From Candidatus Daviesbacteria bacterium (GTDB lineage Bacteria; Patescibacteriota; Microgenomatia; Daviesbacterales; UBA10151): a stretch of DNA of 57,937 nucleotides. The DNA is taken from positions 1 to 57,937 of the forward strand of contig JAKFWZ010000053.1 of assembly GCA_021731695.1 (NCBI GenBank), written 5' to 3'. The notes beneath the pieces are model-generated. The model worked only from the letters and a program-made list of their open reading frames with translations, was not told where the DNA came from and ran no database searches. The translations under genes were made by a program, and so were the position numbers. Positions 6,509-32,443 of this stretch are shown here, piece by piece (position 1 is the stretch's first letter; each line of letters begins with the position of its first letter).

Positions 6509-7091
6509 CCTTCAGCTGCGGCTCTCTCTTCGCTCCTAAATCCAACTCTGTAAATTGTCTTGCGAAAGCTTCGCGTATAACTATCAAGATCGTTGTCTTG
6601 GGGTGGCAACCCTGTTCCTAGCCCTTATCCGTTGCGGGGAGAATAACTTTTTAACCAATAAAAAACTATCTGAAATGAAATAAATCAGGTTAAACTTAAT
6701 TACCCTGCTTTTGGAGAGAATCGAGAGATCAAAAAATCTATTCGCAATAAAGCGAAGCTTGTGACTTTGGTCTAGAAGCGGGGACAGGTAACTATTTATC
6801 AGCCGGCAGCTTTGCCATGAGGCTGAGAAGAGCCATGTTACGAATCAGGCAGCTTCATTAAATTGTGCGTGTTTAGATTTAAGTTTCGGGCATGTTAAAC
6901 CTCCTTGGCACTGATATGAGGGGAAAATCCGCAAAACTTCTGATCCAATGAAGATCTTTTAGAGTCCGTCTACCTGGATATCGGGAGCTATGGTCCAGTC
7001 GCCATAGGCGTAGACCAGAACCCTCGAGCAAAGCTCGTTGTGGTTCATCCTGCATTAATTTAAGGCTAAATCTTTTAAAAAGGGTTGTCAA

Positions 7092-7185
7092 CCCCGTTCG
7101 AAGTATGTTGATTTAACAGAATCTGAAATACGCTTTGATTACCTTTATCAATACTTTTAAAATCATGATTATACTTCTAACGGGG
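7092..7185. mobile_element. 94-bp MITE with CCCCGTTAGAAG-type terminal inverted repeats
   Basis: ccccgttcgaagtat ... atacttctaacgggg (14/15 IR) flanked by TCAA direct repeats (7088-7091, 7186-7189). Confidence 0.75.
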
Positions 7186-7197
7186 TCAATGCTCTTG

Positions 7198-7226
7198 TTG
7201 ACTGGGCTATTGATCAAAGGTACTAT
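7198..7226 (+). promoter_or_regulatory. radA promoter, probably leaderless
   Basis: TTGACT-17 bp-TACTAT, 6 nt before ATG 7233. Confidence 0.55.
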
Positions 7227-7232
7227 TGCCTC

Positions 7233-19922: not shown

Positions 19923-21083
19923 CTATGTCGAAACGAAAGTGACTGCAGGCAGGATGGTTGCTGTTGAGCCCGCGCCTCCTGTTGTGCCTAGTTCGGATAA
20001 CGTAATGGCGCTCGGAATTGCATTACCTCCAAAGCCTGCCCTAGCTGTGTTTGTTAAGAATCCGACAATATGCCGTCCCCACCATGCGGTTTGGTTTGCG
20101 TTATTAGCACTCCAGGCTGTTGAAGCCGATCCGATAGGCATTAAGGATCCCGAGACCATATTTACCGGGTGGATTGGTTGACCTACAAGTCCAGCCAGAC
20201 TTAAACCATTAGTTGAGACTGTATTGGCAGTGCTCCTTAGGCGTAATAGGCCTAAATAATATTGTCCACCTGTTAAGGTGAAATTTCCACCAAATTGCAT
20301 TCCAATGATTCGTGAACCAGAGATATAGGACGATATATTGTTTGTGGATGAAAAGCTCGATGTTTGATAACCCCACGCAGATGTAGCTGTGGTCTGGGGA
20401 AAATTCCAGGTTATACTTCGGCTGCTTACTGATTCTCCAATAGAAAAAGAACTTGAGCTCATAAGGCTTAATGCAGTATCACCATTCATAGTATAAAGAC
20501 CATAATACGAGTAATACGTATTACTGCCCGAAGTATTAGATGTCAGTGTGATATAAGAGTAAGAATTACCGATAAGTATTTGATTAAATTGTAAGTTTGG
20601 GGGAACCGTAACCGGAAAAACAAATAGCGAATTGGTACCAATAAGCGATGTAGCGCCCAAGGTTTGAAATCCTGTTTGCGCAACTCCGGCAATAGCCAAA
20701 GGTTCCCAATAACTGATCGGATCGTTAACGTCATCGATTGTTTTATCAGTAATGCCGGCAGCTATCTGGTCGCCTACGACAATAGTCCGGTTAACGCTGG
20801 TATTGTTTGGTTCGCCTGTTGCTCCGTCTGCGCGGATAACAGTCAAGGTATCATCTTGGATATTGGTCACTCTGACAATCTCAGCAGTGGTTGCAGTACT
20901 GCCAGTCAGTGTTGGCTGTGCCCCGGTAGGCCAGATTGTGGCATTAAAAGGCGGAGAAGGGAATAAGATGCCCTGTCCATACTGAACGGTTATTGAAGTA
21001 CCGGAAGTTCCCGGATCGCTTCCGTTAGGGGAAGTCGTTCCGGTTACCGATGAATATGCAAAATTTTTATGTGCGTCAGCCAT
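19923..21083 (-). CDS. Fibre-like protein, paralog 1 (MADAHKNFAYS family)
   Basis: Shared N-terminal domain 'FP.PPFNATIWP...AEIVRVT...GDQI' and S/T/G-rich beta C-terminus. Confidence 0.7.
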   Translation of the reverse strand: MADAHKNFAYSSVTGTTSPNGSDPGTSGTSITVQYGQGILFPSPPFNATIWPTGAQPTLTGSTATTAEIVRVTNIQDDTLTVIRADGATGEPNNTSVNRTIVVGDQIAAGITDKTIDDVNDPISYWEPLAIAGVAQTGFQTLGATSLIGTNSLFVFPVTVPPNLQFNQILIGNSYSYITLTSNTSGSNTYYSYYGLYTMNGDTALSLMSSSSFSIGESVSSRSITWNFPQTTATSAWGYQTSSFSSTNNISSYISGSRIIGMQFGGNFTLTGGQYYLGLLRLRSTANTVSTNGLSLAGLVGQPIHPVNMVSGSLMPIGSASTAWSANNANQTAWWGRHIVGFLTNTARAGFGGNAIPSAITLSELGTTGGAGSTATILPAVTFVST

Positions 21084-21167
21084 ATTTAATTATAAAATCA
21101 AAGGTCAAAAGTCAAAAATCAAAAGTTCAAGTTAAAAATCAAAACTTTTAACTTTTAACTTCCTTTC

Positions 21168-22283
21168 TTATGTCATTACATTTGATTGTAAAGTTACAGC
21201 AGGTAAGACAGTGGCGATTGAGGCTGCAGCACTTGCGCCTAGGGCGCTGAGATGGATGCTTGCCGGAATCGTTGAACCTCCGAAATTAGCAAGGGAAGTA
21301 GCGGTTACAAAGGCAAGCATGTGACGCCCCCACCAGAGACTTGAATTACTTCGATTAGTTCCCCAAGAGGATGCTGCAAATCCGATAGGATTGTAACCGC
21401 TGATACTTCCTACGAGGTGATATGGATCAACCGGCTTGCCGATTACTCCGGCGACACTCATTCCGTTTGTGCTGTTATTTGCTGTGCTTCTAATTGACAT
21501 CACTCCCATATAATAAATCCCGTTTGTCAGATGCATTTCGCTGCCAAATTGTAAACCAAACCATCTGGTTCCTGAAATATAGTTGACTATTTGGGCAGTG
21601 TTTGACATGGCAAGCGTATCATACCCATAGCCACTGGTATTAGTGGTGGTTGCAAAGCTCCAGGTACGGCTTAGAGTGTTAAATGACTCGGCCATTGAAA
21701 AAGATCCGTTTGCCATCAGTGAAAGGGCAGTAGAAGCATTCATTGTATACAGCCCGAAATAAGAATAGTAAGAAGCACTCCCTTGTGCACTGCCTGTTAC
21801 ATAAGACACTGAAACAGGTAAAACCGCCTGATTAAACTGGACATTACCGTTGACTGTAACCGGAAATACGAGAAGGGATCCGCTGGAGGATTGTCCGGAA
21901 GCAGACGCAAGTGTTTGTAAGGCGGAACCTGCAGCTGAGGAAAAAATATAGGGCGACCAACTAGCAACGGGATTTTCAACCTCTTCCAAAGTTTTGGTAG
22001 TGATTGTTGCGGCAATTTGATCCCCAACTAAGATACCCCGTCTTGAACTCCCTTCCTGTGCTCTGGTAATAGTGAAAGTATCGGTTGATATTGCAGTTAC
22101 CCGAACAATCTCGGCATTGCCTGAAGTTGGTTGTGCGCTGGCAGGCCAGATGGTTGCATTAAAAGGAACAGCAGGGAATAAGGCTCCCTGTCCTGAACTT
22201 ACCACTAAACTTGTTCCCTTCGTTGTCGGTGAAGGAGCGGTCAAAACTGTTGAATATGCGAAATTTTTATGTGCGTCAGCCAT
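21168..22283 (-). CDS. Fibre-like protein, paralog 2; start codon supplied by inserted element
   Basis: Same domains as paralogs 1 and 3; ancestral ATG GCA GAC left at 22599. Confidence 0.7.
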   Translation of the reverse strand: MADAHKNFAYSTVLTAPSPTTKGTSLVVSSGQGALFPAVPFNATIWPASAQPTSGNAEIVRVTAISTDTFTITRAQEGSSRRGILVGDQIAATITTKTLEEVENPVASWSPYIFSSAAGSALQTLASASGQSSSGSLLVFPVTVNGNVQFNQAVLPVSVSYVTGSAQGSASYYSYFGLYTMNASTALSLMANGSFSMAESFNTLSRTWSFATTTNTSGYGYDTLAMSNTAQIVNYISGTRWFGLQFGSEMHLTNGIYYMGVMSIRSTANNSTNGMSVAGVIGKPVDPYHLVGSISGYNPIGFAASSWGTNRSNSSLWWGRHMLAFVTATSLANFGGSTIPASIHLSALGASAAASIATVLPAVTLQSNVMT

Positions 22284-22591
22284 GTAGTGAAATTATGACA
22301 AATTAAATTTTTCTACTTTCATATAAATAATCCTTAATCCTTCTTTTGATAAGCCGACCTCCTTGTGTTGTCTTCAGATATTTTTCTCTTCGCTCGGCAT
22401 CGCTTTTTTCAATGCATGCTTCATAGTATATAAGTTTCCAGGGCATATATCTTTTAGTAGAAAAATTTAATCCATTATTATGTTCTACTAGCCGTTTTTT
22501 TAAGTCCGCTGTATATCCAATATAATGTTCTTTATTAGTCTCGCTTTCTAAAATGTAGACGTAGAACATAAGTCATAATTCTACTACATGG
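22280..22591 (-). mobile_element. 312-bp GIY-YIG mini-element with terminal inverted repeats
   Basis: ccatgtagtgaaattatgac / gtcataattctactacatgg IR; flanks TCAG and TCTG. Confidence 0.75.
22303..22569 (-). CDS. Stand-alone GIY-YIG nuclease (YhbQ/UPF0213-like)
   Basis: 'FYVYIL.S....YIGYT.DL.KR..EHN...PWKLIYYEA.....A..RE.YLK'. Confidence 0.9.
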   Translation of the reverse strand: MFYVYILESETNKEHYIGYTADLKKRLVEHNNGLNFSTKRYMPWKLIYYEACIEKSDAERREKYLKTTQGGRLIKRRIKDYLYESRKI

Positions 22592-22613
22592 TCTGCCATT
22601 TTTTTATTAATTT

Positions 22614-22740
22614 ACCAAGTAACAAGATACAAGTTTTCCAAATAAATTCCAAATTCTAAATCTTAATATTCAAACTTTTTGGTACTTGTGATTTGATTCT
22701 TGGTTATTGTTTGTTCCTTGTTCCTTGTATCTTGGTTATT
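22614..22740. repeat. Long degenerate hairpin built from 7-mers
   Basis: A-rich arm (accaagt aacaaga tacaagt) facing T-rich arm; shares acaaacaataaccaa (inverted) with 57294-57421. Confidence 0.65.
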
Positions 22741-22745
22741 TCATT

Positions 22746-23876
22746 TTAGGTGCTTACCAAGCTTACTAAAGGTAAAACGGTTGCTATTGTGTTGGCGGTT
22801 TGGAAGTTTGCAAGTTCTATAGCACTCGGTAGTCTCGTGCCTCCATATCCCGCCTGCTGGGTATTGGTAACAAACCCCATGATAAATCTGCCATTCCAGC
22901 CGGAAATATCGACGTTACTTTGAGCAAATTCACCCGGACCAAAACCTAGAGGATTCAGCCCGCTCGCGCTCCCCGCCATATTAATTGGGTTGATCACCTG
23001 TCCGATTAATCCGGCATGGGAAAATCCGATAGAGGAAACTCCTCCGGCAGTACTTCTGTAGGTAAGCAGCGCCAGCCAATACATTCCGGCGCTTAAACTC
23101 ATCTCTCCACCAAATTGCAGTCCGACTTTGCGTGCACCTGCAACATAGCTTGAGCCTTGAGCTACAGCAGTTATAGCACCTAAGTTGCCGTTGCCATAAC
23201 CATATCCACTTGTTGCGGTCGAGGTTGGAAAATTAGACGTAAAACTTACGCCTGAATTTGAATCAAGAATACTAAAAGAGCTGGACGAAATAAGAGCCAT
23301 GGTGTTAGATGTCATACTATAAATTCCAAAATTGGAAAAATATGTATTGCTGGCCGCGGTATTAGAAGTCATATAGGATTGAGATTGCGCAATAATAACC
23401 TGATTGAATTTAATCGGGAAGGGGATGGTCATCGGGAAGGCATAAATACTTCCTGTGCCTGTAGTGCTCGAATTTGCTGCCAGAGTCTGGACTCCGGTTC
23501 CGGCTGAAACCGCAATAGCAGGTGACCAGCTGTTTATATAATTTGCCTCAAGATCAGTAAAAAGTTTGGCGGTAACAGTCGCAGCAACTTGATCGCCTAC
23601 AACAATACTGCGCACACTAGAACCTTCTTGCTGAGCGCGAGGATCAGATCCTGGGGATAAGGTAAATGTGTCAGTCGCAATGGATGTAACTCTAACAATT
23701 TCTGCATTAGCAGTTGTTGGTTGTGATCCACTTGGCCAGACTGTTGCATTAAAAGGTGGAGTAGGAAATTTTGCTCCGTCTCCTGATTGAACAACTAACG
23801 TAAATCCAGTAGTTGCTGGGGAAGGAGCGGTTGCTACTGTTGAATATGCGAAATTTTTATAATCGTCTAGAGCCAT
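22746..23876 (-). CDS. Fibre-like protein, paralog 3
   Basis: 'MALDDYKNFAYSTVATAPSPAT...FPTPPFNATVWP...AEIVRVT'. Confidence 0.7.
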   Translation of the reverse strand: MALDDYKNFAYSTVATAPSPATTGFTLVVQSGDGAKFPTPPFNATVWPSGSQPTTANAEIVRVTSIATDTFTLSPGSDPRAQQEGSSVRSIVVGDQVAATVTAKLFTDLEANYINSWSPAIAVSAGTGVQTLAANSSTTGTGSIYAFPMTIPFPIKFNQVIIAQSQSYMTSNTAASNTYFSNFGIYSMTSNTMALISSSSFSILDSNSGVSFTSNFPTSTATSGYGYGNGNLGAITAVAQGSSYVAGARKVGLQFGGEMSLSAGMYWLALLTYRSTAGGVSSIGFSHAGLIGQVINPINMAGSASGLNPLGFGPGEFAQSNVDISGWNGRFIMGFVTNTQQAGYGGTRLPSAIELANFQTANTIATVLPLVSLVST

Positions 23877-28430: not shown

Positions 28431-29048
28431 TTAAGGTTTAATCCACATCCAGCTTCTGAATCTGTCTCTTATTTCATTATCTCTGCGTTCTCTTCTGCCT
28501 AAAAGATACCAGTTTTTTATGTCGTAAGCCTGAGTGAAAGCGTTGACTACATAAATTACATGAACCGTTCCAGCCTTGGTTTTTCCGCTGGTATAAATAT
28601 AGTCGTGCCCGCAAATCACTCCTCCTTTTTTTACTTTCCTGCTCCATTCAGCTAAGTCTTCAGCGATATATCTGAACTGGTGATTACCGTCAATATAAAC
28701 AAAATCCAGACTCTCATCTTCAAAGTCTACAACCGCTTCCATGGAAGTCTTTCTGATAATCTCGCAGTTGGGATATGGTGCTAGAACTCTTTTGGTGTGT
28801 TCGTATAAAAAATTCAGCCTGTCCTGAATCGGGGATTCATGATAATTTTTATCGTATTTCCATGGGTCGATTGCAAATAATTTAAGTCCGGCTTTAGCGA
28901 AATGTATTGAAAATTCACCTTTATCCACGCCTATTTCTGCACCAACCTTAAAACCCATATCAACGAAAAATTGAGGTAAATCATCGCGAGAGCAATCCGG
29001 GATTTCTGCCGGCGCGCCTGTGAGTTTTAATCCATCAATTAGTTTCAT
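28431..29048 (-). CDS. Class I methyltransferase (Methyltransf_24-like), tandem paralog 1
   Basis: 'GAEIGV..G', 'AIDPW', 'LDFVYIDGNH', 'GGVICGHDY'. Confidence 0.85.
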   Translation of the reverse strand: MKLIDGLKLTGAPAEIPDCSRDDLPQFFVDMGFKVGAEIGVDKGEFSIHFAKAGLKLFAIDPWKYDKNYHESPIQDRLNFLYEHTKRVLAPYPNCEIIRKTSMEAVVDFEDESLDFVYIDGNHQFRYIAEDLAEWSRKVKKGGVICGHDYIYTSGKTKAGTVHVIYVVNAFTQAYDIKNWYLLGRRERRDNEIRDRFRSWMWIKP

Positions 29049-29131
29049 TGTTAGTAGTTATGAGTTATGGATAATGAGTTATGAGTGGGGAGTTTGTAGA
29101 ATTTGTTTAACTCCTAACTCCTAACTCATAA

Positions 29132-29755
29132 CTATTTAATAATCATCCAGCTCAAAGTCTTATCATTTCTGGGGTCTTTGCTGCCCGATTCCGGATGACC
29201 GAAAGTGTAAAAGTTTTCAATCTTAAAGGTTTTAACAAAAGCATCAACAACATGACTGACATGACATAAAACATTGTTAGCCCCGGGATCAGTACAGAAG
29301 TAATCGTGTCCGGCAATAATTCCGCCCTTTCTGACTTTATTCCACCAGAAGAAAAGATCTTCAGCGATGTAGGGGAAGCGGTGATCCCCGTCAATATAAA
29401 CAAAGTCTAAACTTCCGTCCTTAAAATCCTTTAGAGCTTCCATGGAAGTCTTTCTGATAATTGTGCAGTCTTTATATGGAGCGAGAGTTCTTTGGGTATG
29501 TCCATATAAAAAATCCTGTCTTTCCTGCGCCTTCTGGCTTCTGCCTGCGCCTTCGTAAGCTTTCCAGGGATCAATAGCGTACATTTTTAACCCTGCTTTG
29601 CAGAATTTTTCAGTAAATGCTCCTTTATGAATGCCTATTTCTGCTCCTGTTTTGAATCCCATAGCAGCAAAAAACTCAGGAAGTTCTTCCCTTGAATTGT
29701 CAGGGATATGAGCCGGTGCACCTTTTAGTTGTTTTATACCGTCGATTAATTTCAT
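29132..29755 (-). CDS. Class I methyltransferase, tandem paralog 2
   Basis: Same motifs, MKLID start. Confidence 0.85.
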   Translation of the reverse strand: MKLIDGIKQLKGAPAHIPDNSREELPEFFAAMGFKTGAEIGIHKGAFTEKFCKAGLKMYAIDPWKAYEGAGRSQKAQERQDFLYGHTQRTLAPYKDCTIIRKTSMEALKDFKDGSLDFVYIDGDHRFPYIAEDLFFWWNKVRKGGIIAGHDYFCTDPGANNVLCHVSHVVDAFVKTFKIENFYTFGHPESGSKDPRNDKTLSWMIIK

Positions 29756-29811
29756 AGTTAGTTAGTTAGTTAGTTAGTTTTGCGATGAACGAATAACGAA
29801 TAACGAACTAA

Positions 29812-30426
29812 CTATTTAACAAACATCCAACTCCGCCATTTATCTCTTTTTTCGCCTTCTTTTTTATCTTTGCTTCCGAGTAAAAACCAATTAGTAATTC
29901 CAAAAGCTGCAACATAGGCTTTAAGAACATAGGCCACATGCCAGATCTGCGCACCAGTCCCGGTTTTAACAAAAAAGTAATCATGTCCCGCGACTATTCC
30001 GCCCTTTCTAACTTTTTTTGTCCATTCAGCCAGATCCTCGGCAATATAACGAAATTCATGGTTTGCGTCAATATAAACAAAGTCCAGGCTTTCATCTTCA
30101 AAATCCTCTACAGCTTCCATTGAGGTTTTTCTAATAATTTCTGCGTTTGGAAAGGGGGCTAAAACCCTCTGGGTATGCTCATACTGAAAGTCGAGTCTTG
30201 CCTGGCCCCTGGGGTTTTCAAATCCTTTATATATTTGCCAGGGATCAATTGCATAAAGCTTTAGTCCGGCTTTGGCTAATTTCTCTGAAAACTCACCTTT
30301 ATAAACTCCTATTTCAGCTCCGGTTTTAAATCCCATATCAACGAAAAATTGAGGTAAATCATCGCGCGAACAATCGGGAATTTCGAAAGGCCGGCCTTTT
30401 TCTTTTATGGCGTCAATTAGTTTCAT
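29812..30426 (-). CDS. Class I methyltransferase, tandem paralog 3
   Basis: Same motifs; start codon abuts a MITE. Confidence 0.85.
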   Translation of the reverse strand: MKLIDAIKEKGRPFEIPDCSRDDLPQFFVDMGFKTGAEIGVYKGEFSEKLAKAGLKLYAIDPWQIYKGFENPRGQARLDFQYEHTQRVLAPFPNAEIIRKTSMEAVEDFEDESLDFVYIDANHEFRYIAEDLAEWTKKVRKGGIVAGHDYFFVKTGTGAQIWHVAYVLKAYVAAFGITNWFLLGSKDKKEGEKRDKWRSWMFVK

Positions 30427-30542
30427 CCCGTTAGAAGCAGATCGCGATCAATCTATCGATGACCGGCTCCTTTCTTATTAATTCCATATAGTCTTTTATT
30501 ATCATAATCTAATGCGTCCTGCGATCGCGGCTTCTAACGGGA
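30426..30542. mobile_element. MITE of the CCCGTTAGAAG family
   Basis: tcccgttagaagc ... gcttctaacggga IR; TCA(T) duplicated on both sides. Confidence 0.75.
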
Positions 30543-30829
30543 TCATGGTTTCTTGCTTCGGGTAAGATTTTCCCCGTTAGATGTAGGAACTGTTTTAGCC
30601 TATTTTTTAAGTAGCGTTTACCCATCCCGGATTTTAAATATTTTTCCCTTGCTTGTGCATCTTCTTCATTAATACATGCTTCATAATATATTAGTTTCCA
30701 AGGACCTCGTGATTTTGTCCATGTTGATTTGCCTTCAGTATGTTCTTTGAAACGCTTCCGCAAGTCGACTGTATAACCAGTGTACATTTTTCCGTCCTTT
30801 TCACTTTTTAATATATACGTATAAAACAT
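30509..30829 (-). CDS. Stand-alone GIY-YIG nuclease; C-terminus reads into repeat ends
   Basis: 'FYTYILKS...YTGYT.DLRKR..EH...PWKLIYYEA...AREKYLKSGMG'; ccccgttaga at 30572. Confidence 0.9.
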   Translation of the reverse strand: MFYTYILKSEKDGKMYTGYTVDLRKRFKEHTEGKSTWTKSRGPWKLIYYEACINEEDAQAREKYLKSGMGKRYLKNRLKQFLHLTGKILPEARNHDPVRSRDRRTH

Positions 30830-30865
30830 AATTTAGTACGGGATCATAGTTTCTTAGGCAGGGTA

Positions 30866-32443
30866 CTAGGATTTAGTAACAAATATTCCATAATCATAAA
30901 AATATAAAAAATCAATATTTGTTTTGAGAAAGCATTTTAACGCGTCCTCAGGCGTTTCGACAATGGGTTCATCGTCGTTGAAACTAGTATTGAGAAGGAT
31001 CGGGACCCCAGAGATTGATTGCCACTTTTTTATGAGGTTATAAAACCAGTGATTTAATTCTTTTTTGACAGTTTGAAATCTGGCAGTTCCGTCAACATGT
31101 ATAACAGCCGGAACCTGATCTTTTTTATTTTCCTTAAACTTTACAGCAAATGACATATATGGACTGTCGTAATTTTCCTCAAACCAATCGTCGACACTTT
31201 CCTCAAGGATGGACGGTGCGAAGGGGCGAAACCATTGCCTGTGTTTAACCTTGTCATTGATATATTTCTTCATCTCCGGATTTCTCGGATCAGCTAAAAT
31301 GCTTCTGTTGCCCAAAGCCCGTCTGCCTGATTCAGAACCTCCGCCGAAAACAGCGACTATTTTTTGATCATTAATCTTATTTAAAACAAAATCATCTGTA
31401 GTTTTGCTAATTTTGATCCGGGTTTTATAAGACTTCAGAGCTGCATTTATATCTTTTTTCGAGTACACTTTTCCCAAATAGGGAGACTGATTCTGAGGTT
31501 TATTTTTGATTCGCGGATTGCCTAAAACGTGGTGCCATAAGTATCGGGCTGATCCTAAAGCCAGCCCCGCGTCATAAGGAACAGGGTCACAAAAAACATT
31601 TTTTATTTTTGGAATTCTGCGTTTAATTTTTCCCAGCATTACAGAATTTAAAGAGACCCCTCCTGAAAAGCAGATATTTTCATGACCTAATCCATTAACG
31701 AAATTTTTAAGATGAGCAAATAATAGATTCTCTGAGTATTCCTGAAGAGACGCAGCAACATTGAATTTTTCCTGTTCTGAAGATTGGGCGAGGCGTGCTA
31801 ATTGCGGTCGGTTTTTTTCAAACTCGTTAAACAATTCAGTATATTTAGGCTCACCAAGCGCTGCCATGGCCATAACCGTACCCTCCTGACCGCCTTTTGG
31901 AGGACCTACGGACAAACCAAATATCCATTTCGTTGACCGGTTCCAGATTCCTCCTATCGGGACTTGTTTTGAATCAAATATTTGGATTCTTTTGATTCTT
32001 TTGCCCAGCCCTTCGTCTATCGTGAATGATGTCGGGACACGGCCTTCCTCGTTTCCGTAACCGTCAATGGCTACTATAAGAGCTCTGTCGAAATTGCTGG
32101 TGTAATAGGCGTTTGCGCCATGACTTAAATGATGTCCAAACTCATAGTACTCGCCATGACTTTTTCTTAGTATTTCGTTCATTTTGTCGATACTGTTTTG
32201 CTCATGGCAGACTTCATGGTACCGGCGTCTTGCTTTGCCAACTACATTAGCAAAGGTGAAGTAATTAATGCCGCTTAGATTTTGCTGCCTGTCCAGAAAG
32301 AATTTCAACCCGTCTCCGTATTCCATTTTTTTTCTGCTAAATCTTTCCCATTCTTCATGAATAACCGGAATGCCATTTTCCAAAATACAATATGAGACAT
32401 CATGCCCTGAGTGAAAACCAACTATTTTTGTTTTACTTCTCAT
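30866..32443 (-). CDS. Carbamoyltransferase (NodU/CmcH family)
   Basis: 'HD.S', 'HHLSH', 'SGGVSLN', 'DAGLALG', 'RALGNRSILADPR', 'VKHRQWFRPFAPS', 'LNTSFN..EPIVE'. Confidence 0.92.
   Translation of the reverse strand: MRSKTKIVGFHSGHDVSYCILENGIPVIHEEWERFSRKKMEYGDGLKFFLDRQQNLSGINYFTFANVVGKARRRYHEVCHEQNSIDKMNEILRKSHGEYYEFGHHLSHGANAYYTSNFDRALIVAIDGYGNEEGRVPTSFTIDEGLGKRIKRIQIFDSKQVPIGGIWNRSTKWIFGLSVGPPKGGQEGTVMAMAALGEPKYTELFNEFEKNRPQLARLAQSSEQEKFNVAASLQEYSENLLFAHLKNFVNGLGHENICFSGGVSLNSVMLGKIKRRIPKIKNVFCDPVPYDAGLALGSARYLWHHVLGNPRIKNKPQNQSPYLGKVYSKKDINAALKSYKTRIKISKTTDDFVLNKINDQKIVAVFGGGSESGRRALGNRSILADPRNPEMKKYINDKVKHRQWFRPFAPSILEESVDDWFEENYDSPYMSFAVKFKENKKDQVPAVIHVDGTARFQTVKKELNHWFYNLIKKWQSISGVPILLNTSFNDDEPIVETPEDALKCFLKTNIDFLYFYDYGIFVTKS

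Follow-up and report, generated by a model that had tools for sequence, protein, structure and literature searches.

Layout of the locus

We analyzed contig JAKFWZ010000053.1 of a Candidatus Daviesbacteria genome (source genome G000; 102 contigs, 1.45 Mb, 37.7% GC), a stretch of 57,937 nt that is contig C4 of that genome and is referred to here as the window. Between a carbamoyltransferase gene and a class I methyltransferase gene, the minus strand carries two short elements bounded by terminal inverted repeats (TIRs): a 272-bp element with a small GIY-YIG nuclease gene and a 117-bp element with no gene, which we refer to as a miniature inverted-repeat transposable element (MITE). Read along that strand, the order is carbamoyltransferase, ATGA, the GIY-YIG element, a 25-nt spacer, a second ATGA, the MITE, and the methyltransferase ATG. 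An earlier, sequence-only reading of this DNA had described the same arrangement, including a 28-bp duplication in which 22 of 28 positions are identical, and the minus-strand sequence bears it out in every particular. The features are as follows (ORF, open reading frame; uORF, upstream ORF).

32443..30866, minus strand: carbamoyltransferase ORF (PF16861 + PF02543), stop codon TAG
30838..30865, minus strand: copy A of the 28-bp direct repeat, TACCCTGCCTAAGAAACTATGATCCCGT, from the repeat search
30847-30844, minus strand: ATGA that closes the leader 'taccctgcctaagaaact ATGA' 3' of the carbamoyltransferase TAG (18 nt, then ATGA), from reading the sequence
30844..30847, minus strand: ATGA 5' of the GIY-YIG element; opens a 4-codon uORF, MIPY, whose stop codon TAA lies within the left end
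30572-30843, minus strand: whole GIY-YIG element, 272 bp
30831..30843, minus strand: left terminal repeat of the GIY-YIG element, TCCCGTACTAAAT, in the register of the family; decayed, 7/13 against the right end
30572..30829, minus strand: core of the GIY-YIG ORF, 86 codons (PF01541), 65 to 76% identical to relatives
30572..30584, minus strand: right terminal repeat, ACATCTAACGGGG; codes for the C terminus ..HLTG; final base G, not A
30509..30571, minus strand: read-through tail of the GIY-YIG ORF, 20 codons plus TAG; crosses the spacer and enters the MITE
30537..30564, minus strand: copy B of the 28-bp direct repeat
30543..30546, minus strand: upstream ATGA before the MITE; ATG at 30546-30544, left copy of the TGA duplication at 30545-30543
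30426..30542, no strand assigned: gene-less MITE, 117 bp; perfect 13-nt ends TCCCGTTAGAAGC / GCTTCTAACGGGA at 30530-30542 and 30426-30438
30423..30426, minus strand: rebuilt start ATGA; the A at 30426 is the final base of the MITE, and the TGA at 30425-30423 is the right copy of the duplication
29812..30426, minus strand: class I methyltransferase (PF13578), the host gene; first of three tandem paralogues

The MIPY uORF ends 3 nt upstream of the ATG of the GIY-YIG ORF (30829), which a single T separates from TCCCGTACTAAAT. At the other side, codons 83 to 86 of the ORF are the right end itself (...CAT CTA ACG GGG, to 30572). Because this junction has no stop codon, the ORF extends 20 codons into the MITE, giving a product of 106 amino acids with its stop TAG at 30509. 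The terminal GGGG of the GIY-YIG element is followed by AAAATCT and then by 'tacccgaagcaagaaacc ATGA' (7 nt, 18 nt, and ATGA) before the MITE begins. The inverted repeat of the MITE is perfect over 14 nt in the repeat search and over 13/13 positions in the family register, and its last base supplies the A of the methyltransferase ATG (30426-30424). No Rfam family was found at 30300-31000, where the single match was at chance level (E = 0.28).

We consider it probable, at about 70%, that the window holds two members of a minimal family of TIR-bounded mobile elements, consisting of an Slx1/UPF0213-type nuclease and MITEs, that lives on start codons. Our confidence is high for the family-level description, which derives from sequence comparison, and moderate for the putative role of the GIY-YIG protein as the mobilizing enzyme and for the expression model proposed below.

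A TIR-bounded GIY-YIG family across phyla

The 86-amino-acid protein was used to scan one genome per species. At least 602 stretches matched, 432 were confirmed, and the best 80 were taken as the locus set; these are 65 to 76% identical over residues 1 to 86. Their hosts are metagenome-assembled genomes (MAGs) labeled as Patescibacteria (many lineages), Omnitrophota, Nitrospirota, Thermodesulfobacteriota, Planctomycetota, Elusimicrobiota, and others. One Woesearchaeota-labeled locus was rejected as an archaeal member, as its printed element and flanks equal those of a Saccharibacteria-labeled locus. Viral contigs yielded 8 relatives, all of them distant (54% identity or less), and no member of the window subfamily.

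The sequence-only reading had linked the CCCGTTAGA ends to a GIY-YIG gene, and this association holds well beyond the window: in 71 of the 80 loci, a simple pattern recognized the end pair, with the ORF lying between 13-nt inverted repeats N-CCCGTTAGAGAY. The full element measures ~272 to 285 bp and consists of 13-bp inverted ends (N-CCCGTTAGAGAY ... RTCTCTAACGGG-N') with one 86-codon ORF between them. Gene-less derivatives of 90 to 125 bp share these ends. Nine loci were left out of the end counts (L016, L024, L036, L037, L045, L046, L051, L056, and L072). The ends are variants in L036, L045, and L046, and the left end is unrecognizable in L016, L024, L056, and L072. In L037 and L051 (also L147/L168), a right-type family end (..TTCTAACGGG) stands directly 5' of the ATG of the GIY-YIG gene; apparently, other GIY-YIG genes are likewise hit at their start codons by the elements.

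Over the 71 loci, the left end agrees with the complement of the right end in 69 to 71 loci at each of positions 1 to 13 and in no more than 36 from position 14 onward; positions 2 to 8 were partly fixed by the search pattern, and positions 1 and 9 to 13 were free. Positions 1, 7, 8, 11, 12, and 13 vary and co-vary, giving pairs such as GAGAC/GTCTC, GAGAT/ATCTC, ACGAAAT/ATTTCGT, and ACATCCA/TGGATGT, and position 13 is C in 25 loci, T in 43, and A in 2, with one mismatch. The outermost base pair is T...A in 46 loci, C...G in 22, G...C in 1, and T...G in 2.

The element ORF has no stop codon of its own, and its last codons are the right end itself. These codons are frozen, with CTA as codon 84 in 62 of 63 loci and ACG as codon 85 in 68 of 68. 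Elsewhere in the ORF, 4 to 6 codons are used for conserved Leu, Thr, Gly, and Arg residues, which indicates that the right end is constrained as DNA, or through the pairing of the ends, and not only as protein. By eye, no Shine-Dalgarno-like motif was seen in the 8 to 14 nt 5' of the element ATG.

Among 151 genomes of the class, a 12-mer that includes TG occurred in 10 genomes, compared with 3 control hits. The 9 twelve-mer loci outside G000 comprised 1 clear 123-nt MITE at an ORF start, 3 right ends before a long ORF, and 5 chance-like matches.

Placement on start codons

The 46 T...A copies are flanked by target duplications of 4 bp (29 copies), 3 bp (9 copies), 6 bp (1 copy), or 2 bp (1 copy), and 6 have none. 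The usual duplicated word is TGAA. Rarer words are matched on both sides in eight loci (TGAC, TGAG in three, TGGA in two, and TGTA in two), indicating that these are true target duplications and not a fixed part of the element. The base 5' of the left copy is A in 34/46, and an ATG is present in the left flank in 35 of the 46, which identifies ATGNN as the original target. At the right junction, the last A of the element and the duplicated TG form an ATG in 42 of the 46 copies.

These junction ATGs are gene starts far more often than other ATGs nearby. An ORF of at least 80 amino acids, or one running to the end of the locus, follows in 37 of the 42, and the same is true of 1143/6335 control ATGs from the same loci (18%). 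The claim that translation starts are occupied repeatedly was thus upheld across the family. Pfam matches at E ≤ 1e-5 were obtained for 34 of the 37 junction ORFs, and in 17 the first domain begins within residues 1 to 9 and at profile positions 1 to 5. These matches identify the junction ATG as the native N terminus of real and often essential genes. Host genes include those for CTP synthase (pyrG), topoisomerase I Toprim (topA), SMC_N (smc), and ribosomal protein L31 (rpmE), along with pgk, greA, and genes for a MurG-type glycosyltransferase, an NTP transferase, an epimerase, and a GTPase.

The usual junction reads ...ACG GGA TGA in the GIY-YIG frame and gives ATG A.. when read in the frame of the host gene; the last GIY-YIG codon is followed by TGA in 36/46 and by TAA in 2/46. 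The GIY-YIG ORF is always co-oriented with the host gene, and a TTCA-type left flank, which would mark the opposite orientation, was found in none of the 46. No conserved motif was found upstream of the left-flank ATG. Where this ATG is out of frame with the GIY-YIG ORF (19 copies), it opens a uORF of 6 to 94 codons, mostly 6 to 22; a further 12 copies have no left-flank ATG, and four in-frame copies (L013, L025, L038, and L061) lack their own ATG at the usual place.

Among the 25 copies with other end bases, a co-oriented ORF starts within 200 nt downstream in 17 and within 30 nt in 14. Their duplications are TTTA, TAAA, TGAA, or shorter, and the stop codon is often a TAA or TGA in the flank. 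In three C...G-ended loci from Nitrospirota and Schekmanbacteria MAGs (L035, L064, and L077), the right end has no stop and the GIY-YIG frame enters a downstream ATG in frame. The downstream gene is of one family in all three (M.PPE..KKK.IGF), and a fusion protein may be made.

Insertions are also stacked. A GIY-YIG copy is directly followed by a MITE that shares its ends and its duplicated word in L040, L041, L018, L075, L024, and, in degenerate form, L062. L040 and L041 share their printed sequence (ATGAA, GIY-YIG copy, TGAA, MITE, and then TGAATATT...), the word TTTA occurs three times in L018, and that of L075 is TAAA. Insertion restores the target on either side of the new copy, so one site can be expected to be used repeatedly.

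Sites without the element

The sequence-only reading had called for an empty-site comparison. Homologous genes do occur without the element. For topA (L010), the DNA matches in ~25 relatives start at the junction A (query position 859). Four of the 7 relatives inspected have a plain ATGAAA start preceded by unrelated DNA without the repeat, 2 have the family right end (TCTAACGG...) directly 5' of topA, and in 1 the start was unassigned.

For the window methyltransferase, 33 metagenomic homologues were found (46 to 86% identity), of which we inspected 25 whose match reached the N terminus; seven others lacked the N terminus, and L136 was omitted by oversight. The aligned start is ATG in 21 and GTG in 2, and 2 matches begin at residue 3. 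None of the 25 has a family end adjoining the start, and four have single, unpaired 6-mers 113 to 571 nt away. The aligned starts indicate that the rebuilt ATG at 30426 is the native methyltransferase start, in line with the earlier claim that the downstream gene keeps its start.

Around the other gene, no near orthologue of the carbamoyltransferase was found in 40 relatives (best identity 43%, none of the same genus), and these genomes offer no pre-insertion form of this locus. Contigs from Logan contain further copies that have the ends of the window MITE around a different 71-nt interior. One is flanked by ATGAG on the left and ATGAG TTTAGTAG... on the right, the other by cTGAA and ATGAAAAAAACC..., and both right flanks read as gene starts. 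A comparison of L007 with genome G079 was rejected as a clean empty site: both flanks align, and G079 has a different, 435-nt gene there. That gene (L106, G079:C6) is cytidylyltransferase-like, and L007 keeps its first ~14 nt with ATG changed to TTG, which suggests gene loss or replacement at the element site.

Copies in the source genome

Motif counts alone do not exceed chance in G000. With up to one mismatch, CCCGTTAGA occurs 7 times in the window versus 7.8 expected, which is not above chance, and exact copies number 13 in the 1.45-Mb genome versus ~6.5 expected. The signal is the paired inverted arrangement and its conservation across genomes, not the number of motifs. A search of G000 for inverted motif pairs recovered the 117-bp window MITE with its T...A ends and a second full GIY-YIG copy on contig C45 (786-1062), which has perfect ends (CCCCGTTAGAGAC / GTCTCTAACGGGG) and two adjoining gene-less copies; its 86-codon ORF ends ...LSLTG at the very last base, and its stop codon TGA comes from the flank. 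Five short copies with C...G ends, 91 to 94 bp including the end bases, were found at C1 60195, C1 60766, C4 7092-7185, C45 3, and C45 523. The first is flanked by TTGA on both sides, and the third lies in the window.

7092..7185, no strand assigned: C...G-ended MITE, 94 bp, upstream of radA; TCAA flanks at 7088-7091 and 7186-7189

This MITE is 85% identical to C1 60762-60864. In four genomes of the same genus, the motif was absent within 330 nt of radA, where the intergenic DNA does not align. The 724-nt intergenic region that contains it (6509-7232) separates an S1-like gene from radA, and the spacer of the same gene pair is much shorter in two genomes of the genus. The C...G-ended MITEs (window 7088-7189; C1 60195-60286 and 60766-60857) adjoin -35-like boxes (TTGACA/TTGACT) that lie upstream of genes such as radA (7233), and the duplicated TTGA forms part of such a box in both C1 copies.

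The GIY-YIG protein

The window protein matches PF01541 at 65.4 bits (cut-off 22.6) over residues 1 to 68 and is a bare domain. An alignment of 29 sequences has 21 invariant columns, all of which are kept in the window protein; they include Y5, Y16, G18, R26, H30, and E62. The conserved motif residues of the superfamily (the Tyr of GIY and of YIG, Arg, and Glu), to which putative catalytic roles are assigned, are thus present. The nearest solved sequences are the UPF0213 proteins BH0048 (1zg2, E = 2.9e-10) and EF2693 (1ywl, E = 0.002), followed by an SLX1 homologue (E = 0.021). An AF2 model (pLDDT 89.7) has three strands plus helices in a GIY-YIG alpha/beta fold, and its top Foldseek matches are 1zg2, At-HIGLE (7wme), and Slx1-Slx4, with I-TevI and UvrC N-terminal domains ranking lower. 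The only NCBIfam match, to TIGR01453 (group I intron endonuclease), is sub-threshold at 26 bits versus a cut-off of 56.05, and a PHROG homing endonuclease matched weakly (E = 0.0075). Sequence and predicted fold both place the protein in the Slx1/UPF0213 branch and not with UvrC or the homing enzymes.

Stand-alone prokaryotic forms (1ywl and 1zg2) have been placed in the Slx1 family as minimal, probably ancestral, and mainly vertically inherited (PMC1564403); the passages of that paper that deal with these forms make no mention of mobility, ends, or start-codon placement.

Other GIY-YIG subfamilies

Small GIY-YIG genes are present in 107 of 201 sampled genomes of the class (E ≤ 1e-15), and several of 26 inspected loci have long inverted ends of their own together with the same placement. 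In L157, ATGA is followed by CCAGGTACT...AGTACCTGG and then ATGAGTGAC; L159 has TATG on both sides; and in L177 the element lies between GATG and GATGAAAA. These sequences show at least two other GIY-YIG subfamilies, with different ends, that follow the same logic. So does a member of another subfamily in the window.

22280..22591, minus strand: GIY-YIG element of another subfamily; 20-nt ends CCATGTAGTAGAATTATGAC; ORF 22569..22303; ATGGCAGAC to its left

ATGGCTGAC... (from 22283), the start of a 371-amino-acid gene, takes its ATG from the right end of this element, and an uninterrupted paralogue at 21083 begins with the same ATGGCTGACGCACAT (MADAHKNFAYS) without an element. The exact border is ambiguous, being compatible with a 4-bp CWGA or a 9-bp duplication. 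The surrounding region (19923-23876) holds three tandem paralogues of ~370 to 390 amino acids that start MADAHKNFAYS / MALDDYKNFAYS, and the element lies at or near one of these starts.

Searching G000 with the window protein (tblastn, E ≤ 1e-3) gave 13 small GIY-YIG loci, most of them belonging to other subfamilies with other flanking repeats. Those on C3 (23918), C11, C13, C14, C31, C34, and C68 have an N terminus YYVYIL... and GC-rich hairpin flanks (GTCATTGCGAG / TCATCCCGAAC), in what looks like another association of repeat and enzyme. Small GIY-YIG genes also lie directly upstream of tRNA genes (C20 ~6520-6900, C3 11727, and C13 5119); on C20, the first ~26 nt of the tRNA recur upstream of the GIY-YIG gene as an imperfect copy split by a 16-nt palindrome.

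Proposed mechanism

The sequence comparisons show that insertion duplicates a target of 3 to 4 bp, which in the T...A lineage is the TGNN of a host ATGNN. The host's own ATG remains upstream, and the last A of the element together with the duplicated TG rebuilds the host start, with the nuclease ORF usually stopping at a TGA that overlaps the rebuilt ATG (ATGA). We propose that the nuclease is made from the promoter, ribosome site, and ATG of the host, either through a short N-terminal fusion or through reinitiation downstream of a short uORF, and that the host gene is then translated by coupling at ATGA. The nuclease may recognize or cut at the paired ends and so move both full and gene-less copies. 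It is a candidate for the mover because it is the sole gene between the ends and its 3' end is one of them. Given that Slx1-type enzymes cleave branched DNA and that the left and right ends co-vary, its substrate may be a stem formed by both ends.

Going further, these could be the smallest autonomous DNA transposons yet seen (~275 bp) and a new class, defined by an 86-residue Slx1-like GIY-YIG nuclease as sole protein, insertion at start codons, host-driven expression, return of the ATG, an overlapping stop, horizontal spread across phyla, and converging subfamilies. We hold this extended proposal tentatively, at a little below even odds.

Alternative explanations

Several findings weigh against a mobile, start-codon-dwelling family or against parts of the proposed mechanism. 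To our knowledge, no strand-joining (strand-transfer) activity is known for GIY-YIG enzymes, and a protein of 86 residues is too small to include a separate DNA-binding domain. The left ATG is in frame with the GIY-YIG ORF in 15/34 copies, a share that does not clearly exceed one third, which means that fusion is no general rule. The C...G copies are not on start codons, and no duplication flanks 9 of the 23 copies with a left end other than T. Within G000, the expected link between ends and start codons stands for the two window copies, which are the only ones of the start-codon (T...A) type, and fails for the five C...G short copies, which are intergenic with TCAA/TTGA-type duplications; the defining features of the junction are also missing from the window's own GIY-YIG copy. 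Within a genome, the copies are old, with 78% identity in G042 and 85% for two G000 MITEs. The TCTAACGGGA 10-mer was found in 64 of 151 genomes of the class, with counts of the same order as those of a reversed control (counts not summed); the count itself is thus uninformative, and the family is low-copy there. No alignable filled/empty pair of one site was found among related genomes, which are too diverged for intergenic alignment. Reads gave no evidence of movement: the short, shallow Logan contigs (four runs, one study) bridge no empty form. Finally, DDE_Tnp_1 transposase genes are present on three small G000 contigs (C63, C70, and C88).

These transposase genes bear on the view that the ends and MITEs are moved in trans by another enzyme, unrecognized or of the DDE type, with the GIY-YIG protein as a cargo, addiction, or repair module. 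This would suit a protein that is a bare 86-amino-acid catalytic domain from a group without known strand transfer, and some DDE families also make 3- to 4-bp duplications. We nonetheless consider it unlikely. The GIY-YIG ORF is the only gene ever found between the ends (71/80 loci), one and the same stretch of DNA serves as the end of the ORF and as the right end, and many phyla with tiny genomes carry the family. The three DDE contigs gave no match to the family motif and have unrelated candidate inverted repeats, and neither PF13358 nor PF01797 (Y1_Tnp) was found in G000 (97% complete). One of the DDE_Tnp_1 genes has an internal TGA and another has two TAA codons.

A different objection concerns how the start-codon pattern arose. 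Insertion may be only weakly site specific, into TNNA-like 4-bp targets, with the pattern emerging later through purging, decay, and the persistence of copies that rebuild an ATG. The C...G copies are intergenic and use TTTA, TAAA, TCAA, TTGA, and TGAA; the left flanks have no conserved motif upstream of the ATG; and strict co-orientation is hard to obtain from symmetric 13-bp ends and easy to obtain from selection for expression. Speaking for targeting instead, TG directly follows the end in 42/46 T...A copies, and ATGAA-like words that are not starts should, by our estimate, far outnumber starts; stacked insertions reuse the same site; and three subfamilies with unrelated ends converge on ATG. 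Strict orientation fits selection, and the near-absence of T...A copies elsewhere fits targeting. We regard later selection as close to an even proposition, and the data cannot separate biochemical targeting of ATG from the survival of insertions that spare the host and are expressed. This objection opposes only the word targeting and is compatible with the family being mobile and living on start codons.

Two further explanations dispense with transposition. The ATGA overlap is ordinary operon architecture and the MITE folds as a stable hairpin, as would be the case if a conserved small nuclease gene simply headed operons and the inverted repeats were a regulatory or terminator hairpin. This is already contradicted by the 3- to 4-bp duplications, which vary by site yet match across each element. 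Neighbors also differ in nearly every locus, gene-less copies have the same ends, several copies occur per genome, identity is 65 to 76% across phyla, and orthologous genes lack the element; we give such a non-mobile gene almost no credence. A free-standing homing endonuclease gene, spreading between alleles by double-strand-break repair like phage T4 seg/mob, would account for the GIY-YIG domain and for the weak, below-threshold matches to TIGR01453 and the PHROG homing endonuclease. It is very unlikely, given that the protein has no DNA-binding domain, that TIRs, target duplications, and MITEs are not known as features of homing genes, that the element sits at dozens of unrelated genes, and that viral contigs gave only distant relatives (≤54% identity).

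Comparison with known systems and implications

The family resembles pairs of insertion sequences (IS) and MITEs in its TIRs, short target duplications, full and gene-less copies with shared ends, and presence at several unrelated sites. It differs in that its sole gene encodes an 86-amino-acid GIY-YIG protein and not a DDE, HUH, serine, or tyrosine transposase, and in that its ~275 bp are an ORF from end to end that borrows its stop and often its start from the host, with ends that rebuild the host ATG. The smallest IS that we know of is ~700 bp. REPIN-RAYT systems likewise combine a small enzyme gene, flanked by short repeats that also form ~100-nt hairpin-like gene-less units, with low copy number and long persistence. 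Their enzyme, however, is an HUH Y1 transposase, a family (Y1_Tnp) not found in G000, and the elements described here have direct duplications, start-codon placement, and wide horizontal spread. T4 Seg/Mob and I-TevI have the GIY-YIG catalytic domain in common with the element protein, are likewise selfish, and also lie between or before host genes, but homing enzymes carry DNA-binding modules, spread by repair of the cut allele, and lack inverted ends, duplications, and MITEs. Rickettsia palindromic elements are also small, palindromic, selfish DNA in expressed regions that leaves the host gene functional; they lie in frame inside coding sequences and have no known associated enzyme gene, whereas the family described here sits at the start codon with an enzyme gene attached. 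Slx1/UPF0213 proteins such as BH0048 and EF2693 are nearest to the element protein in sequence and fold and are likewise minimal single domains, yet their stand-alone prokaryotic forms are treated as ancestral and vertically inherited in the part of the literature cited above (PMC1564403).

The element is thus of the transposon-plus-MITE kind yet fails the defining test of the IS, REPIN-RAYT, and homing classes, and there is a substantial chance that it represents a new class. A full-text literature search found no description of TIR-bounded GIY-YIG elements or of start-codon insertion; most subscription journals were outside that search, and a prior description is possible.

If the nuclease moves the elements, GIY-YIG would be a further catalytic class of prokaryotic transposase, and the lower size limit for an autonomous mobile element would be set anew. 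The design is economical: the ORF doubles as the right end, the host gives the start, stop, and expression signals, and the terminal base repairs the host start. It shows how a parasite can occupy essential genes (topA, pyrG, smc, pgk, and rpmE) in the smallest known bacterial genomes while the host survives. For annotation, many genes labeled "GIY-YIG nuclease family protein" in CPR and other MAGs would be mobile elements, and start codons adjoining such genes would need care. What began as a single locus widens to a cross-phylum family, and a 13-bp end, a 4-bp target, and an 86-amino-acid protein make it tractable for biochemistry.

State and history of the two window copies

The two copies in the window appear to differ in age. 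The MITE looks like a recent insertion on the methyltransferase start because it has perfect ends, a TGA duplication, and a rebuilt ATG. As RNA, it is predicted to form one long hairpin (-42.9 kcal/mol, z = -2.46), and the A and U of the rebuilt AUG are among the pairs that close it. The GIY-YIG copy looks old as an element, although its ORF is intact, because its ends match at 7/13, its last base is G, and its right junction has neither duplication nor stop. The locus also differs from stacked loci elsewhere in that 7 nt plus an 18-nt stretch resembling the leader of the GIY-YIG copy separate this copy from the MITE.

Ten bases of the 28-bp repeat (ATGATCCCGT) are family features, and the remaining 18 match at 12/18 (binomial p ~0.001 to 0.005). 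Of 1000 shuffles, 3 equaled the best local match between the two flanks. Other family loci do not in general have long flank repeats, as only a few of them exceed shuffles, and the leaders of the other two methyltransferase paralogues are different. Most likely, the 28-bp repeat marks two related 5' leaders. Our guess is that a fourth methyltransferase paralogue, whose start once held the GIY-YIG copy, was lost and left the two paralogous leaders behind. The three tandem methyltransferase paralogues that are present (28431-30426) have starts of the form MKLID.., and the GIY-YIG element lies at or near the start of one of them.

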